Shown here: positions 4,177-64,000 of the stretch, one piece after another
How the letters are laid out: every line of letters begins with the position of its first letter
Position numbering within the stretch: position 1 is the first letter of the stretch
Source: Eledone cirrhosa
Lineage: Eukaryota
DNA: 64,000 nt
Reading direction: 5' to 3'
Assembly: GCA_964016885.1 (NCBI GenBank)
Contig: OZ024742.1
Coordinates: 158,534,001 to 158,598,000, forward strand
Notes under the pieces: model-generated
Database searches by the model: none
What the model was told of the DNA's origin: nothing
Seen by the model: the letters and a program-made list of their open reading frames with translations, nothing else
Translations under genes and position numbers: made by a program

Positions 4177-4232
4177 ACTGCCTGATGAGGTCATAGCCAC
4201 TCAATGGCTATCATCGAAATATATATAGCAGT
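4177..4232 (+). ncRNA. Type I hammerhead ribozyme (family A)
   Basis: ACTGC-CTGATGA-ggtcATAGCCactcaatGGCTATcatc-GAAA-TATATA-TA-GCAGT. Stem I is ACTGC/GCAGT, the core is intact, stem III is palindromic, and AATAAA follows immediately. The segment 4111-4280 recurs at 22547-22715. Confidence 0.85.
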
Positions 4233-30060: not shown

Positions 30061-31475
30061 TTTTTTTCTTCTGTTGTTTCTTCTTCTACTTCTTCTTCGC
30101 CCACTTATTCCTGAGGGGGTCGTGGGGGAAGAGTTTTCAAACACTCCTTCCAGCGGGGCTTGTCAGAAGCAACCGTCTCCAACTGATCTGGTTGGATCCC
30201 CAAGCGAGACCAGCCAAGCTCATGGATGTTATCCAACCCTCTTGCTCGGCGTCTACACCTGAGCCTCCTGCCTGTTGGTGTTGCTCGTAAAATTTTTCCG
30301 GCGATTCTTTCCTGGGATATTCTAATCACATGCCCATAGTATGGGAGCTGTGATCCCTCAATTCAGAGATTCTTTCCTGAGATATTCTAATCACATGCCC
30401 ATAGTATCGGAGCTGTGATCCCTCAATTCAGAGATTCTTTCCTGAGATATTCTAATCACATGCCCATAGTATCGGAGCTGTGATCCCTCAATTCAGAGAT
30501 TCTTTCCTGAGATATTCTAATCACATGCCCATAGTATTGGAGCTGTGATCCCTCAATTCAGAGATTCTTTCCTGAGATATTCTAATCACATGCCCATAGT
30601 ATCGGAGCTGTGATCCCTCAATTCAGAGATTCTTTCCTGAGATATTCTAATCACATGCCCATAGTATCGGAGCTGTGATCCCTCAATTCAGAGATTCTTT
30701 CCTGAGATATTCTAATCACATGCCCATAGTATCGGAGCTGTGATCCCTCAATTCAGAGATTCTTTCCTGAGATATTCTAATCACATGCCCATAGTATCGG
30801 AGCTGTGATCCCTCAATTCAGAGATTCTTTCCTGAGATATTCTAATCACATGCCCATAGTATCGGAGCTGTGATCCCTCAATTCAGAGATTCTTTCCTGA
30901 GATATTCTAATCACATGCCCATAGTATCGGAGCTGTGATCCCTCAATTCAGAGATTCTTTCCTGAGATATTCTAATCACATGCCCATAGTATCGGAGCTG
31001 TGATCCCTCAATTCAGAGATTCTTTCCTGAGATATTCTAATCACATGCCCATAGTATCGGAGCTGTGATCCCTCAATTCAGAGATTATTTCCTGAGATAT
31101 TCTAATCACATGCCCATAGTATCGGAGCTGTGATCCCTCAATTCAGAGATTCTTTCCTGAGATATTCTAATCACATGCCCATAGTATCGGAGCTGTGATC
31201 CCTCAATTCAGAGATTCTTTCCTGAGATATTCTAATCACATGCCCATAGTATCGGAGCTGTGATCCCTCAATTCAGAGATTCTTTCCTGAGATATTCTAA
31301 TCACATGCCCATAGTATCGGAGCTGTGATCCCTCAATTCAGAGATTCTTTCCTGAGATATTCTAATCACATGCCCATAGTATCGGAGCTGTGATCCCTCA
31401 ATTCAGAGATTCTTTCCTGAGATATTCTAATCACATGCCCATAGTATCGGAGCTGTGATATCTCGATTCGCTCAA
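30061..31475 (-). mobile_element. Short 3' fragment of an RTE LINE whose 5' part has been amplified into a tandem array
   Basis: Minus strand encodes ERIEISQLRYYGHVIRISQERIAGKILRATPTGRR...RWKECLKTLPPRPPQE* (the RTE C-terminal QLRW.GHV.R motif), with an (AAG)n-like tail. Confidence 0.8.
30301..31459. repeat. 65-bp minisatellite, about 18 near-identical copies
   Basis: Unit GAGATTCTTTCCTGAGATATTCTAATCACATGCCCATAGTATCGGAGCTGTGATCCCTCAATTCA, starting at 30366, 30431, 30496 ... 31406. Confidence 0.97.
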
Positions 31476-56717: not shown

Positions 56718-57072
56718 GTGTGTGTGTGCGTGTGTGTGTGTGTGTAAATGGTAAACAAAAAAAACAAAAATAACAAAACAAACGGCACAGTACATGGAAG
56801 GAATATATAAATTCAACGCTTGAAATAGCAGGAAAGTTATATATATATTTATATATATATATATATGTAGATAAATCTACCAAAATATACGGTAGTGTCC
56901 AATCCGTATGAAAAACTCAATGTAATCCAAAAGAGATGATACATTCAAAAATTTTCGATGAAAATCATAGGAAAACAGAGTCACGATGAATTAATAAAAA
57001 CAATGAAATAAAAACAAAGAAGAAGTTCCTTATATTAATATATATATATATATATATATATATAGCAGGAAA

Positions 57073-57112
<40 letters not shown>

Positions 57113-57299
57113 TAATTTAATATATCAACTAACATAGACGCACAGATGTACGTCCATGCCAGCAAATACACAGGTTATGTCATAGTACCTAGGTGGTTCA
57201 ATGCAGGAGGGTGCAGAACAATAATATAAAAGACGTAAAATAAGAAAATATTTTTTAAAAAATTTTTTTAAAGTTTTTTACTTACTTACTTAAATTTTC

Positions 57300-57381
57300 A
57301 CTCCAACTAATTAGTTTCTGCAATGGGATAAAGACAGTTACATAATCCAACTGTCGAGAATTCATTGCGTCATCAGGGAGT
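57300..57381 (-). ncRNA. Type I hammerhead ribozyme (family H), unit 1; further copies at 57853-57934, 58406-58487 and 58959-59035 (last one lacks the 5' strand of stem I)
   Basis: Minus strand: ACTCC-CTGATGA-cGCAATG-aattctc-GACAGTTggattatgtAACTGTC-tttatcc-CATTGCa-GAAA-CTAATTAG-TT-GGAGT. Confidence 0.88.
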
Positions 57382-59285
57382 CTATTCTCAGCTGAGCCTC
57401 CAGGCAATGCGCGGACACTGGCGGCTCATATAAAAATAATACTTCGGTAGAAAGAACAGCTAGGCGAGGACTGGATTCTATGTACTGAAATTCTCACTGC
57501 TTCCAGTCAAATAACCGATTCTAAAGAATCAATCACGTGACATAGAGGCTAGTTAGAAGGAATGGGATGGTAAGATGACTGACGCCTACTAACACCCCAA
57601 AAAAAATTTTGAAGTGGTTTTGGCAGGTTTGCTCGACAAATCAGTGATTTGGAGATAAATATAGATAATTTAATATATCAACTAACATAGACGCACAGAT
57701 GTACGTCCATGCCAGCAAATACACAGGTTATGTCATAGTACCTAGGTGGTTCAATGCAGGAGGGTGCAGAACAATAATATAAAAGACGTAAAATAAGAAA
57801 ATATTTTTTAAAAAATTTTTTAAAAGTTTTTTACTTACTTACTTAAATTTTCACTCCAACTAATTAGTTTCTGCAATGGGATAAAGACAGTTACATAATC
57901 CAACTGTCGAGAATTCATTGCGTCATCAGGGAGTCTATTCTCAGCTGAGCCTCCAGGCAATGCGCGGACACTGGCGGCTCATATAAAAATAATACTTCGG
58001 TAGAAAGAACAGCTAGGCGAGGACTGGATTCTATGTACTGAAATTCTCACTGCTTCCAGTCAAATAACCGATTTTAAAGAATCAATCACGTGACATAGAG
58101 GCTAGTTAGAAGGAATGGGATGGTAAGATGACTGACGCCTACTAACACCCCAAAAAAAATTTTGAAGTGGTTTTGGCAGGTTTGCTCGACAAATCAGTGA
58201 TTTGGAGATAAATATAGATAATTTAATATATCAACTAACATAGACGCACAGATGTACGTCCATGCCAGCAAATACACAGGTTATGTCATAGTACCTAGGT
58301 GGTTCAATGCAGGAGGGTGCAGAACAATAATATAAAAGACGTAAAATAAGAAAATATTTTTTAAAAAATTTTTTAAAAATTTGTTACTTACTTACTTAAA
58401 TTTTCACTCCAACTAATTAGTTTCTGCAATGGGATAAAGACAGTTACATAATCCAACTGTCGAGAATTCATTGCGTCATCAGGGAGTCAATTCTCAGCTG
58501 AGCCTCCAGGCAATGCGCGGACACTGGCGGCTCATATAAAAATAATACTTCGGTAGAAAGAACAGCTAGGCGAGGACTGGATTCTATGTACTGAAATTCT
58601 CCCTGCTTCCAGTCAAATAACCGATTCTAAAGAATCAATCACGTGACATAGAGGCTAGTTAGAAAGAATGGGATGGTAAGATGACTGACGCCTACTAACA
58701 CCCCAAAAAAAATTTTGAAGTGGTTTTGGCAGGTTTGCTCGACAAATCAGTGATTTGGAGATAAATATAGATAATTTAATATATCAACTAACATAGACGC
58801 ACAGATGTACGTCCATGCCAGCAAATACACAGGTTATGTCATAGTACCTAGGTGGTTCAATGCAGGAGGGTGCAGAACAATAATATAAAAGACGTAAAAT
58901 AAGAAAATATTTTTTAAAAAATTTTTAAAAAATTTTTTACTTACTTACTTAAATTTTCACTCCAACTAATTAGTTTCTGCAATGGGATAAAGACAGTTAC
59001 ATAATCCAACTGTCGAGAATTCATTGCGTCATCAGCAAACCTGCCAAAACCACTTCAAAATTTTTTTTGGGGTGTTAGTAGGCGTCAGTCATCTTACCAT
59101 CCCATTCCTTCTAACTAGCCTCTATGTCACGTGATTGATTCTTTAGAATCGGTTATTTGACTGGAAGCAGTGAGAATTTCAGTACATAGAATCCAGTCCT
59201 CGCCTAGCTGTTCTTTCTACCGAAGTATTATTTTTATATGAGCCGCCAGTGTCCGCGCATTGCCTGGAGGCTCAGCTGAGAATAG

Positions 59286-59367
59286 ACTCCCTGATGACGC
59301 AATGAATTCTCGACAGTTGGATTATGTAACTGTCTTTATCCCATTGCAGAAACTAATTAGTTGGAGT
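59286..59367 (+). ncRNA. Type I hammerhead ribozyme (family H), inverted copy
   Basis: The same motif, read directly on the plus strand. Confidence 0.88.
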
Positions 59368-59464
59368 GAAAATTTAAGTAAGTAAGTAAAAAACTTTTTA
59401 AAAATTTTTTAAAAAATATTTTCTTATTTTACGTCTTTTATATATATCTATATATATATATATA

Positions 59465-62400
59465 TATAATATAAGATCAAAAGATGGGTAAAAGAGTTCC
59501 TTGTATTTTATTATGCGCATTTCAAAAACAAATATCATCATGCGATGACATTTGCCTTTTCCTCAGATAAAATAGGGAGACATGATATGAAGGCTAAAAA
59601 ACACTCGTGAATAGTGCAGTTTTAAATCAACATATGAAAAGTAGTTTAACATTGATGTGTGATATTGGGAAAAAATGAGGGGGGTTGGAAAGGATGAAAA
59701 AGAGGAGGAGATGAGAGTAAGGAATGGAGGGGGAGGAGTATAATAAGGAAGGATGAGATAGGAGGAGAGATGGGTGATAGAAAGAGAGCTTTTATAACTG
59801 AGAAAAATATATTGTTTTACAGGGAGAGGTTAAAAAACCGTTGGACGATAATATATAAATTAAAAGAATTTGAAAATTAACGAAGAGAAAGAATTAAGAA
59901 TAATGTTAAATTAAGGTTTATATATTGAAGGGTTTAATAATATGTGCGATGAAAAGAAATTGTTAATATGTATTAAGAATAATATTAAATTAAGGTTTGA
60001 ATATTGAAGGGTTTAATAATATGTGCGATGGAAAGAAATTGTTGATATGTATTATTAAAATAAAAATAGTAATGTTATTAAGGATATAATGTGAAAAGAA
60101 GTAGAAGAGTGGATGAATTATGAATTTAGAGGAATTAGTTAGTGTTTAAGTTTGTTTTTATGTAATGTAATATGTATGTGTAATATATGTAAATAGTTTG
60201 TTTACAAATGAGCGCAGAAAGCAAAGAAGGAGATAGTGTTTAAGGAGAAGACCTTAACATCAAAATATGTATGTTTATGAAGTATTTCCTAATGGTAATA
60301 ATATAATGTAATAAAGGAGATTAGTTAGGGTTTAAGTTTGTTTTTATGTATTGTGATGTGTAATATGTAAAAGTTAGACGAGCATGAAAGGGAGAAAAAA
60401 ATAATGAATTGAGGATGAATAAGCTAACGTAAAAAAAATGTTTATGTTTACGAAGGATTTTTAAAGGTGATACTATAAAGTATTTAAAAGGGTAATAGTA
60501 AGTTTTATGGCCAGTGATAGGATGGAAGAAGGAAGAGTGGATATATTGTGGTGAGTAATAATGAGAATTGAGAAGTATCTAGGAAGAAAAGGTACAGATT
60601 AGAGGTTAGGAATTAAACGAAAAAAGGAAAAAAGGAAGAAAGGGAAGTGATAAATAGGAATGATATAGAATGAGAAACTAGTATTATATAATTTAATTCT
60701 AGAAGAAATCCTCCTTCCAACAAAAATCTAGTGCAATTCGAGGCGGAGTTAACTAACATTATAAAAAAATCTTAAATTCAAGAGAAACCCTTACAGAGGA
60801 CAAGAGCACCTTGTAAATCTCAAGAATGCGATTTTAAACCTAAATTCCTCAAAATATATTTTAGTCCACTCCGACAAAACAAATAATTTATGTGGTATAT
60901 CTAATGATAACTATAACAACCTTATCCTTAAATAACTTAGGAAGAAATGTCGCAAAACCAACCATGATAATTTAGAATCCATAAACTTTGAAGCTTCTGA
61001 GATTATTTCAAAACTTGGCATCAAAAAAAAGACCGAACCACTCCTCCCAAGGACTCCGAGGATAAATCTCAAGCATCACAAAAACAACTTTCGTACTGAA
61101 CTACCTGTTAGACTAATCTCCCCTCTAAATCAGATCTGGGGGTTGTTAGCAAAGCCATCTTGGATAGAATTATCCCACAGGTTCGTTCTAATTGCTCTAC
61201 TTCTAACTTAAATTTATGGTTTGGTACTTCTGAAGTGATTGGCTGGTTCAACAAATTGAATAAGAAAAACAAACAAAAATTTATTCAATTTGATAATGCC
61301 AGCTACTATTCTTCTATTTCGCCCTCACTTCTCAACAATGCTCTATCTTTCGCTTACAAATATTCAGACATCACCACAGATGAATTTCACATCATTCTCA
61401 CCGCACGTAAAACCATCTTAGAGTTCAACAATGAATATTGGACCAGAGCTGATAACTCTAACAACTTTGACATTACAATGGGTGCATCCGATTCATCCCA
61501 ATTGACAGATTTAATTGGTGTCTTTATTTTGAACTCTTTGAATCGGAAAATTCCTCAACTTCGCGGTGGAATTTATCGGGACGATGGACTTTTTACTATC
61601 TTAAATTGCTAGATAGTTAGCCTTAATATTATTAAGAACAATATACGTGATCTCTTTAACCAACATAACTTAAAAATTGAATTTGATAACAACATCAAAA
61701 TAGCTAACTTCTTGGATATATCCCTTAATCTTGACATTGGCCTACATTACCCTTACCATAAAAACAATGAGAATCTAAATTATGTTAATATTAAATCTAA
61801 TCACCCCACTAACATTAAAAATGCGATAGTTAATAATATTGGAAAAAGAATATCCAACCTATCATCTAATAAAACATCTTTGATGCTAACCCCAATTACT
61901 ATAATAACGCGCTTTCTAAAGCCGGTTATCCTGATAAAATCAAATACAGTAAATAAACCAATCCTAGAAGATCTTACAGCAAAATAACTAATCATGATCA
62001 TTCCAATAACTTTAATAAAAACCTAGATACAAAATTATAATCTGGTATAATGCTCCTTTCTCCATCTCTATTAATAATAATATTCCTAAATTATTCTTTA
62101 GTGCCTTAAATAAATGCTTCCCTCCCTCGCATATCTATAGTAAAATATTTAACAAACACTATAAAATGTTCCTATTCGACCTCCTCTAACACCTCCAACA
62201 TTATCTCTAAACACAACAATAAAATACTAAATACTAAATCTCGTTCTTCCAACACTGAATATCATAATAATAGTAATAGTACTCCCGACGTCATTGTTAA
62301 CTCTAGGCTAATTTCTGCAAACCCAAATACGACTTCAAACGCAACTTCGTTAAATGTTCTTAATCCCAATCTAAATCAAGAAACTATTATTCCTATCGTA

Positions 62401-63990
62401 AATAACTTCTCCAATCCAGTTCCTTCTATAGATAACACTAGGTCACTTGTTAATAACTCTGTTAATTTCTCTAATCGCATTTGTAATTGCCCTGTTAAAA
62501 ATAAATGTCCTCTCAACAACCATTGTCTTGAAAAAAAAGTTAATCTATGAATGTAAAGTTATAACTGACACAAATACCTTTACCTATTTTGGCTCCACTT
62601 CCACCTCCTTTAAAGCTCGTCTTTATAATCATCATTCGTCTTTTAAATACCAACTTAAAAGAACCAACACGGCCCACTCAGAATTCATATGGTCCTTGAA
62701 AGACAAATGTATTAACTATAACATCTCTTGGAGGAAAGTTTGTTCTGCCCCTTCATACTTGAATGCCTCTCTATCCAAAACATGTAATCTCTGTTTATGT
62801 GAGAAATTTACCATTATATCTAATTTAGATTCTATAATAAATAGACGCACTGACTTATTTTCTCTCTATTTATCACTTCCTATTTATCACTTCCCTTTCT
62901 TCCTTTTTCCTTTTTTTCTTTTAATTTCTAACCTCTAATCTGTACCTTTCCTTCCTAGATACTTCTCAAGACACATTATTAATCACCACAATCTATCCAG
63001 GCTTCCTTCTTCCATCCTATTACTGGCCATAAAACTTACTATTACCCTTTTAAATACTTTATAGTTCACCTTTAAAAATCCTTCGTAAACATAAACATTT
63101 TTTTTTTACGTTAGATTATTCATCCTCAATTCATTATTTTTTTCTCCCTTTCATGCTCGTCTAACTTTTACATATTACACATCACAATACATAAAAACAA
63201 ACTTAAACCCTAACTAATCTCCTTTATTACATTATATTATTAGCATTAGGAAATACTTCATAAACATACATATTTTGATGTTAAGGTCTTCTCCTTAAAC
63301 ACTATCTCCTTCTTTGCTTTCCGCGCTCATTTGTAAACAAACTATTTACATATATTACACATACATATTACATTACATAAAAACAAACTTAAACACTAAC
63401 TAAATTCATAATTCATCCACTCTTCTACTTCTTTTCACATTATATCCTTAATAATATTACTATTTTTATTTTAAAAATACATATCAACAATTTCTTTCCA
63501 TCGCACATATTATTAAACCCTTCAATATTCAAACCTTAATTTAATATTATTCTTAATACATATTAACAATTTCTTTTCATCGCACATATTATTAAACCCT
63601 TCAATATATAAACCTTAATTTAACATTATTCTTAATTTTTTCTCTTCGTTAATTTTCAAATTCTTTTAATTTATATATTATCTTCCAACGGTTTTTTTAA
63701 CCTCTCTCTGTAAAACAATATATTTTTCTCAGTTATAAAAGCTATCTCTCTCTTTCTATCACCCATCTCCCCTCCTATCTCATCCTTCCTTATTATACTC
63801 CTTCCCCTCCATTCCTTACTCTCATCTCCTCCTCTTTTTCATCCTTTCCAACGCCCCTCATTTTTTCCCAATATCACACATCAATGTTAAACTACTTTTC
63901 ATATGTTGATTTAAAACTGCACTATTCACGAGTGTTTTTTAGCCTTCATATCATGTCTTTTGATCTTATATCTTTTGATCTTATATTATT
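59465..63990 (+). mobile_element. Naiad-type Penelope-like element 3 with an inverted 5' pLTR of about 1.2 kb (59465-60660) and a 3' pLTR (62878-63990)
   Basis: Coding region about 60690-62865: LVQFEAEL, HSDKTNN, FIQFDNASYYSSI, ITMGASDSSQLTDLIG, GIYRDDGL, SNHP, IWYNAPFS, CNCPVKNKCPL, IYECKV..YFGST..FKARLYNH, CNLCLCEK. It carries stops and frameshifts. The flanks are close reverse complements. Confidence 0.92.
59504..59574 (-). ncRNA. Type I hammerhead ribozyme (family I) in the inverted pLTR
   Basis: Minus strand: TATTTTAT-CTGAGGA-AAAGGCAAATGTCATC-gcat-GATGATATTTGTTTTT-GAAA-TGCGCA-TA-ATAAAATA. 8-bp stem I, long stem II, palindromic stem III. Confidence 0.88.
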
Positions 63991-64000
63991 TATACTCCAG

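Follow-up and report, generated by a model that had tools for sequence, protein, structure and literature searches.

Two-armed insertions of a hammerhead retrozyme with two fixed, paired ends in the genome of Eledone cirrhosa and their probable link to Penelope-like elements

The papers cited here leave two questions open: how animal retrozymes integrate, and why an inverted copy and a one-sided tail are found in insertions of Penelope-like elements (PLEs). Both are raised by a tandem array of hammerhead-bearing units in Eledone cirrhosa (assembly GCA_964016885.1, contig OZ024742.1, positions 158,534,001 to 158,598,000; this 64,000-nt stretch is referred to below as the window). The explanation that we prefer, with a probability of about 0.6, is that the two-armed retrozyme was made by the enzyme of a Hydra-clade PLE, which extended both cut ends of a (TA)n target along the retrozyme RNA, the latter probably in ligated, circular form.

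The array is composed of a direct arm of 1,930 nt and an inverted arm, placed head to head (Table 1). The initial annotation had described about 3.5 near-identical 553-bp units without an ORF and (TA)n on both flanks, and this description agrees with the measurements: compared with unit 1, the other units of the direct arm differ at 2, 6, and 3 positions, and the longest stop-free frame of the looped unit has 50 aa in sense and 37 aa in antisense. An RT-GIY-YIG ORF was absent inside the array, as judged by stop-free frames and PLE protein comparison, and the tblastn comparison with 10 PLE proteins gave no similarity in the units (best E 7.1). The GC content of the unit is 36.9%, and the monomer is strongly self-paired (folding z -6.2). 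The inverted arm is 99–100% complementary to the direct arm, with an overlap of 2 nt between them. The inverted partial unit of the initial annotation is thus present, but it is more than a short 5' appendage and constitutes a second arm, which has a fixed 3' end of its own. At the E-box-like element, exact CACGTG was found in five of the seven subfamily representatives. The window also contains an array of a 65-bp repeat at 30303-31459 (17.8 copies, 99% identical).

Table 1. Parts of the two-armed array and its flanks, in window positions
Feature	Position	Strand	Remark
Arm B, 3.49 tandem 553-nt units	57106..59035	-	RNA sense = minus strand
Arm B, outer 3' end	57106 side	-	fixed site B, 199 nt past predicted cleavage site
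Arm B, 5' end	59035	-	truncated at hammerhead C3
Arm A, 410-nt inverted arm	59034..59443	+	outer 3' end = fixed site A, 81 nt past predicted cleavage site
Head-to-head arm junction	59034..59035		2-nt microhomology; unit phases 482 and 225; no palindrome
118-nt "tail" spanning site A to site B	57106..57223	-	only at this end
Type I hammerhead, copy 1	57300..57381	-	predicted cut after U at 57305
Type I hammerhead, copy 2	57853..57934	-	predicted cut after 57858
Type I hammerhead, copy 3	58406..58487	-	predicted cut after 58411
5'-truncated hammerhead	58959..59035	-	begins at C3; 5' strand of stem I absent
Type I hammerhead of inverted arm	59286..59367	+	predicted cut after 59362
Motif directly 3' of site B (TTATCTCC...GTCGAGCAA)	57629..57658	-	in each unit; common to intact Hydra-clade PLE
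E-box-like GTCACGTGATTGA	57529..57541	-	candidate internal promoter element (putative function)
(TA)n target, left	57038..57105		
(TA)n target, right	59444..59473		

The hammerhead was claimed initially as complete and of type I in every minus-strand unit. This is correct for three copies, while the fourth direct copy lacks its 5' part and begins at C3 (59035). The C3 positions lie at 57376, 57929, and 58482 on the minus strand and at 59291 on the plus strand; N17 is U in each case (57305, 57858, 58411, and 59362). The stem II region is 57 nt long, and opposed C and A are placed between the core and the G10.1-C11.1 pair. The proposed Rfam/Infernal check gave no match in the array, either at the gathering threshold or at E<=10. 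Because Rfam misses this hammerhead, the fold was tested by covariation. In 11 distinct natural copies taken from sister subfamilies, 92.9% of cells of the predicted pairing are paired and 26 two-sided changes were counted; compensatory changes fall in 8 of the 21 pairs, within stems I and II and the inner hairpin. Shuffled alignments were as good in 0/500 cases on three measures, 4/500 on one, and 176/500 on the fifth, figures that are inflated by kinship of the copies. All 222 hammerheads of the fetched loci have the C that precedes G10.1 and the additional A that follows C11.1. The stem III palindrome is kept in 220 of these 222, a proportion that leans high since 100 copies were chosen by a motif that includes stem III. 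A 17-mer of the hammerhead has 12,359 exact matches in the 3.0 Gb genome and its reversed control has none. The count of this 17-mer, the covariation, and the monomer fold place the hammerhead motif beyond chance. In a cofolding model, two hammerhead copies would join via intermolecular stem III, and a bulged base between positions 9 and 10.1 together with a palindromic stem III was described for PLE hammerheads acting as dimers (PMC4209133). The predicted ribozyme could be slow, given U17, the length of stem II, and the C opposed to A at its base. The in vitro failure of eight out of nine Xenopus retrozyme dimers to cleave (bioRxiv 10.64898/2026.07.22.740005) also counts against the reading that we prefer. 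Further type I hammerhead-like motifs with a palindromic stem III were seen in the window at 4182, 6012, 16145, 22618, 26274, 33442, and 41657/42579; they are likely the ends of other PLE families.

The genome was sampled in two ways. Searching it with the unit yielded 209 matches from the 39 scored of 663 candidates, and the 39 best-matching loci, i.e., the window and 38 fetched loci, constitute the first set. The second set is unselected and contains the 60 loci on contig C1 that account for its first 100 matches to the motif. Among 22 full monomers, seven subfamilies of 522-571 nt were distinguished, which have 69–90% identity and can be aligned end to end. The search for dispersed arrays suggested by the initial annotation has therefore revealed a multi-locus family with thousands of motif matches and seven subfamilies, and its proposal of a young, ORF-less family of tandem hammerhead retrozymes is upheld. 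Units differ by 0.3-0.4% within a locus and by 0.9% between loci. The unit or its relatives are also present in contigs of four sequencing runs, the kind of contig being unspecified. Further hammerhead tandem families were encountered, with units of 310-311 nt (L038, L068, L093), 466-470 nt (L068, L094), 483 nt (L063), 648 nt (L046), and 423 nt (L127). The L093 and L094 families have two different fixed ends each, with tails of about 34 and 68 nt, and the 483-nt family is similar to the 553-nt retrozyme downstream of the cut.

The initial annotation had itself named what would speak against a retrozyme: a unit confined to a single locus or always attached to an autonomous PLE ORF, in which case the array might be only an amplified pLTR of an unseen autonomous PLE or an assembly artefact. 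Such an origin, or that of an ordinary satellite, could be suspected from a degraded Hydra-type PLE that lies 30 nt to the right of the array. The hammerhead and the ends (43 and 134) of this neighbour are different, though, and a retrozyme copy joined to a PLE ORF was seen at 0 of the 60 unselected loci. No autonomous element with the pLTR of the retrozyme was found among the loci fetched. The lack of PLE protein similarity in the unit, the 39 dispersed loci on many contigs, each with distinct junctions, and the seven ORF-less subfamilies that align along the whole unit argue in the same direction, and we consider this origin largely refuted and very improbable. Tandem type I hammerheads, no coding capacity, dispersal, low GC (<50%), and a self-paired monomer place the element among the non-LTR retrozymes, as judged from sequence. 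Published metazoan non-LTR retrozymes (Cervera and de la Pena, 2020, PMC7229834; Li et al., 2026, bioRxiv 10.64898/2026.07.22.740005) are likewise dispersed ORF-less tandems with one type I hammerhead per unit and a self-paired monomer, and the GC of 37%, the co-occurrence with PLEs, and the unit size are also in line with them, whereas the 57-nt stem II region missed by Rfam is a difference. For some of the published families, expression and cleavage were demonstrated; for the present one, cleavage is predicted. The size of 553 bp, regarded initially as unusually large, is not special. Vertebrate retrozyme families span 51-972 bp (bioRxiv 10.64898/2026.07.22.740005), and the cricket pDo500 satellite is a hammerhead tandem repeat of about 500 bp, for which compensatory changes and a double-hammerhead mode were reported or proposed (PMC2837043). 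In contrast to the retrozyme, pDo500 was described as a satellite, and no insertion anatomy was found in the available text of that paper.

The mode of insertion is recorded in the ends of the arms. When phases are numbered from the predicted cut, the outward 3' ends lie at site A (81) or at site B (199). Both sites end in TATAT and run into (TA)n, and the gap between them is 115-118 nt in all seven subfamilies. Of the 103 scored insertions, 67 are two-armed and head to head and 36 are one-armed, which bears out the Penelope-like insertion signature recognized in the initial annotation. Among the 67, 52 have one A and one B end, none has A+A or B+B, and 15 have another end. The first set comprises 28 two-armed insertions, 24 of them A+B and 4 with a different end, and 11 one-armed ones; in the unselected set, the corresponding numbers are 39, 28, 11, and 25, the last including three copies of one insertion. 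Exact junctions were counted genome-wide (1,129 for A and 787 for B, with patterns that differ in stringency), and controls gave 0. For C1 up to 222 Mb, where 100 A and 64 B ends were listed, 26 of 26 head-to-head pairs were A+B, against a random expectation of 48%; these pairs partly overlap the loci of the two fetched sets. The tail occurs at one end only in the 52 A+B insertions. PLE insertions are recognized by an inverted copy with a truncated 5' end and by a tail of 30-40 bp on one side (PMC8557442, PMC3846280), and the length of 115-118 nt is outside this quoted range. Folding of the tail region with RNAalifold gave 45 pairs, three of them with a two-sided change, so that a structure is weakly supported.

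Either arm can be the long one. Among A+B insertions, the A arm is longer in 11 of 24 (first set) and 10 of 28 (unselected set); in 10 of 28, each arm is more than 600 nt long. Pairs are as uneven as 0.6 vs 13.2 and 4.2 vs 0.6 units, and the inverted second arm reaches 9.7 units. These data bear on the older account of the PLE tail and inverted pLTR (PMC8557442, PMC3846280), according to which priming occurs at one end, the inverted arm is made by fold-back or self-priming, and an endonuclease resolves the intermediate at a second site. Formation of the tail by EN-mediated resolution (PMC8557442) and self-priming at palindromic junctions (PMC3846280) were proposed in print, and near-symmetric junctions were found at 9 of 28 best-matching loci, where 3.6 were expected. 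The unselected set, however, has no such excess (4 of 39, expected 5), and the 5' phases of the two arms are more than 35 nt apart at 54 of the 67 junctions (<=35 nt at 13). Since either arm can be far longer, neither is always the parent, and in the Anolis PLE both tail ends are RT start sites in vitro (PMC11167929). We regard the fold-back route as quite unlikely. In the first set, the arms meet with overlaps of at least 2 nt (10 junctions) or of 1 nt (3), bluntly (8), or with short inserts (7).

Several other features of the ends were observed. Truncations at the 5' end cluster in the first tenth and the last tenth of the unit (phases about 500-55), around stem III and an AT-rich hairpin, and not at the cut. 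A recurrent 5' end at phase 501 (L076, L077, L110) was considered as a partner and rejected, as it represents one insertion copied along with its flank. Runs of (CT)3-15 stand between site B and (TA)n at 9 of 59 B ends (L052, L080, L081, L084, L085, L098, L099, L102, and L112) and at 0 of 163 internal B sites; most of the opposite flanks that were checked start with plain (TA)n. The runs could result from telomerase-like slippage at initiation or from later growth of a microsatellite. Tail-to-tail A ends about 40 nt apart and hairpin-like duplications of flanks by one-armed insertions (G000:C1:139513354 and 142713859; L050 and L062) suggest fold-back at (TA)n.

The second debatable issue is the template. 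The cleavage site is crossed by the arm in 47 of 48 cases of the first set and 45 of 56 of the unselected set, 92 of 104 together, and a 5' end was found within 3 nt of the site just 4 times among 170, which makes a cut linear monomer an unusual template. The variants within loci are also informative. All 49 calls of lineage variants are fixed in every covering unit of a locus, the sole shared "subset" call being a site mutated again in a third unit. Three variants private to their locus, including one from this window, occur in every unit of both arms, and their fixation across the arms requires a monomer bottleneck. Array length does not rise with arm-to-arm divergence (rho 0.16, p 0.49, n 22), and arrays of 2.3-3.6 units occur at zero arm-to-arm substitution. 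This favours repeated copying of a monomer at insertion, as was proposed for PLEs and retrozymes (PMC4209133, PMC7229834), and gives indirect support to the rolling-circle origin put forward in the initial annotation; a uniform source array outside the sample is a possible origin of the uniform units.

An alternative is a two-ended PLE insertion without a circle, in which the template would be an uncleaved linear read-through multimer, or monomers joined by template jumping, and the arrays would lengthen afterwards by unequal exchange. In vitro, insertion by the Anolis PLE did not need hammerhead cleavage and its main substrate was unprocessed RNA (PMC11167929), a result that favours this alternative and counts against our explanation, and local amplification is the model of a recent preprint (bioRxiv 10.64898/2026.07.22.740005). 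Twelve private variants occur in only some units of a locus, mostly in one arm and periodically (L043, L047), so long arrays also grow after insertion or derive from multimers; in the long arrays L043, L047, L057, L037, and L032, private variants with a period of 2, 3, or 5 were seen within one arm. Periodic variants restricted to one arm point to later local expansion or multimeric templates. The alternative is disfavoured by the 49 fixed lineage calls, without clear segregation inside arrays, by the private variants fixed across both arms, by long arms at zero arm-to-arm divergence, and by the compensatory change that keeps the hammerhead across subfamilies down to 69% identity. It seems unlikely, although less so than the fold-back route.

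A young intact family of Hydra-clade PLEs (L066:6036-9780, L141-L210), with a unit of about 3.6 kb, was identified in the same genome. The L066 ORF encodes 782 aa with the Hydra motifs RWK, DKT, and CxCX5C, Pfam gave no real match on Hydra-type proteins, and about 70 of 150 scored matches to the L066 protein sit in a 785-codon open frame, by a hand count. The hammerhead of this family has an 88-nt stem II region; its ends lie 42 and 155 nt after the hammerhead, giving a tail of 113 nt, and of 10 two-armed insertions fetched, 9 could be scored and all 9 had one end of each kind, often with both arms of full length. Other hammerhead PLE families of the genome, including the degraded neighbour of the array, pair their ends likewise, with tails of about 90 nt. 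Hammerhead PLE tails in this genome thus measure about 88-113 nt, so a long tail is a trait of these elements here and not of the retrozyme alone. Hydra-clade PLEs were reported to carry hammerheads and target (TA)n (PMC8557442; Craig et al., 2021), and they resemble the retrozyme in this target, in a hammerhead close to the 3' end, in an inverted copy with a truncated 5' part, and in having the tail on one side only (PMC8557442); the intact family has, in addition, the same motif after site B. They differ in that the retrozyme has no ORF and a tail of 118 nt in place of the 30-40 bp quoted. The region around site B aligns to the end sites of the Hydra PLE in seven of seven subfamilies (four to the 155 site, three to the 42 site), and 0-10 of 300 shuffles were as good; the region around site A has no similarity to the Hydra element. 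The (TA)n target and the site-B motif thus likely tie the retrozyme to the Hydra clade, as judged from sequence.

The degraded Hydra-type PLE beside the array occupies the same (TA)n run (window 59474-64000 and L211:1000-1075), with its inverted arm on the left; one of its ends lies about 43 nt and the other about 134 nt past the hammerhead of this element. It was rejected as a partner, as its hammerhead and ends are different and it has no significant similarity to the retrozyme tail. The segment joined to the 5' side in L078 was rejected as a partner arm as well, since it is an unrelated solo-LTR-like repeat with no PLE ORF beside the 11 other copies fetched. An GCAGGAAACT island was noticed inside (TA)n at window 57060-57075 and at L211:1135-1152, with a similar one at window 56826; standing to the left of the retrozyme and to the right of the neighbouring PLE, it may represent a target-site duplication that spans both insertions.

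The preferred explanation, two-ended priming by the Hydra-clade enzyme, starts from what is read directly in the DNA: the target, two fixed ends and their one-to-one pairing, multi-unit arms on either side, a variant common to both arms, and the Hydra PLE footprint with its motif. The steps that we infer are as follows. Tandem transcripts would cleave themselves, likely as double hammerheads joined via the palindromic stem III, and the monomers would be ligated to circles. The PLE protein, likely a dimer, would bind near site B, and its GIY-YIG nuclease would cut both strands of (TA)n. One of the 3'-OH ends (...TATA) could then pair with UAUAU at site A and the other with UAUAU at site B. Each cDNA would continue across the cut/ligation site, with rounds that vary in number, and the two cDNA 3' ends would be joined via 0-7-nt microhomology or a short filler. 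The 36 one-armed insertions, the 15 two-armed ones with another end, the near-symmetric junctions of the first set, the partly shared private variants, the dissimilar region around site A, and the lack of an autonomous element with this pLTR among the loci fetched count against the scheme. Precedent for part of this scheme is found in Poseidon PAc of Anolis (Frangieh et al., 2024, PMC11167929), where two internal RT start sites bracket and define the tail, both strands are cut and extended, and a dimer is predicted. In PAc, the two sites adjoin each other. They have no homology to the target and show no strand specificity in vitro, two points that count against the proposal; those of the retrozyme are 118 nt apart, both end in target-matching TATAT, and are used one per end. 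The twin priming of L1 is a similar process. In it, two target ends prime on the RNA, resulting in a 5' inversion joined by microhomology, but the event is occasional and the internal site is variable. In the retrozyme, most insertions are two-armed and neither site varies; the arms also have sequence in common and may consist of several units. It could even be speculated that integration of Hydra-type PLEs is intrinsically two-ended and asymmetric, with a protein dimer holding a hammerhead-processed circular RNA (or two, paired by the palindrome of stem III), A and B starts on opposite target ends, independent rolling, and telomerase-like slippage at B that adds (CT)n of untemplated appearance; we hold this view tentatively, at somewhat less than even odds.

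The class of retrozymes is already known, and what is new is the footprint as direct genomic evidence for movement. The statement that PLEs have a "tail at one end only" already gives the pairing rule loosely. The word "inverted" is absent from the main text of PMC7229834, and "tail" and "junction" are absent from the text of bioRxiv 10.64898/2026.07.22.740005; the available parts of both sources were not found to describe a two-armed insertion in (TA)n whose two ends are fixed and paired. The literature search, outside which lay most subscription papers and supplements, returned no report of this family, of two-armed retrozyme insertions, or of a strict one-per-end use of two sites. This family or its tail lengths may already be recorded in Repbase/Dfam entries or in the supplementary lists of families that accompany PMC8557442 and PMC7229834.

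Thousands of young and simple insertions yield a strict rule: one A end, one B end, and either arm multimeric. The footprint and the common cis motif link a retrozyme to a named PLE clade beyond mere co-occurrence, and with an intact enzyme family and a 553-nt RNA, two-ended priming and rolling-circle copying become directly testable in vitro. If integration of Hydra-type PLEs is indeed intrinsically two-ended, then the tail of PLEs, their inverted pLTR, and the tandem retrozyme arrays would have a single mechanistic explanation, with the retrozyme as the minimal substrate.
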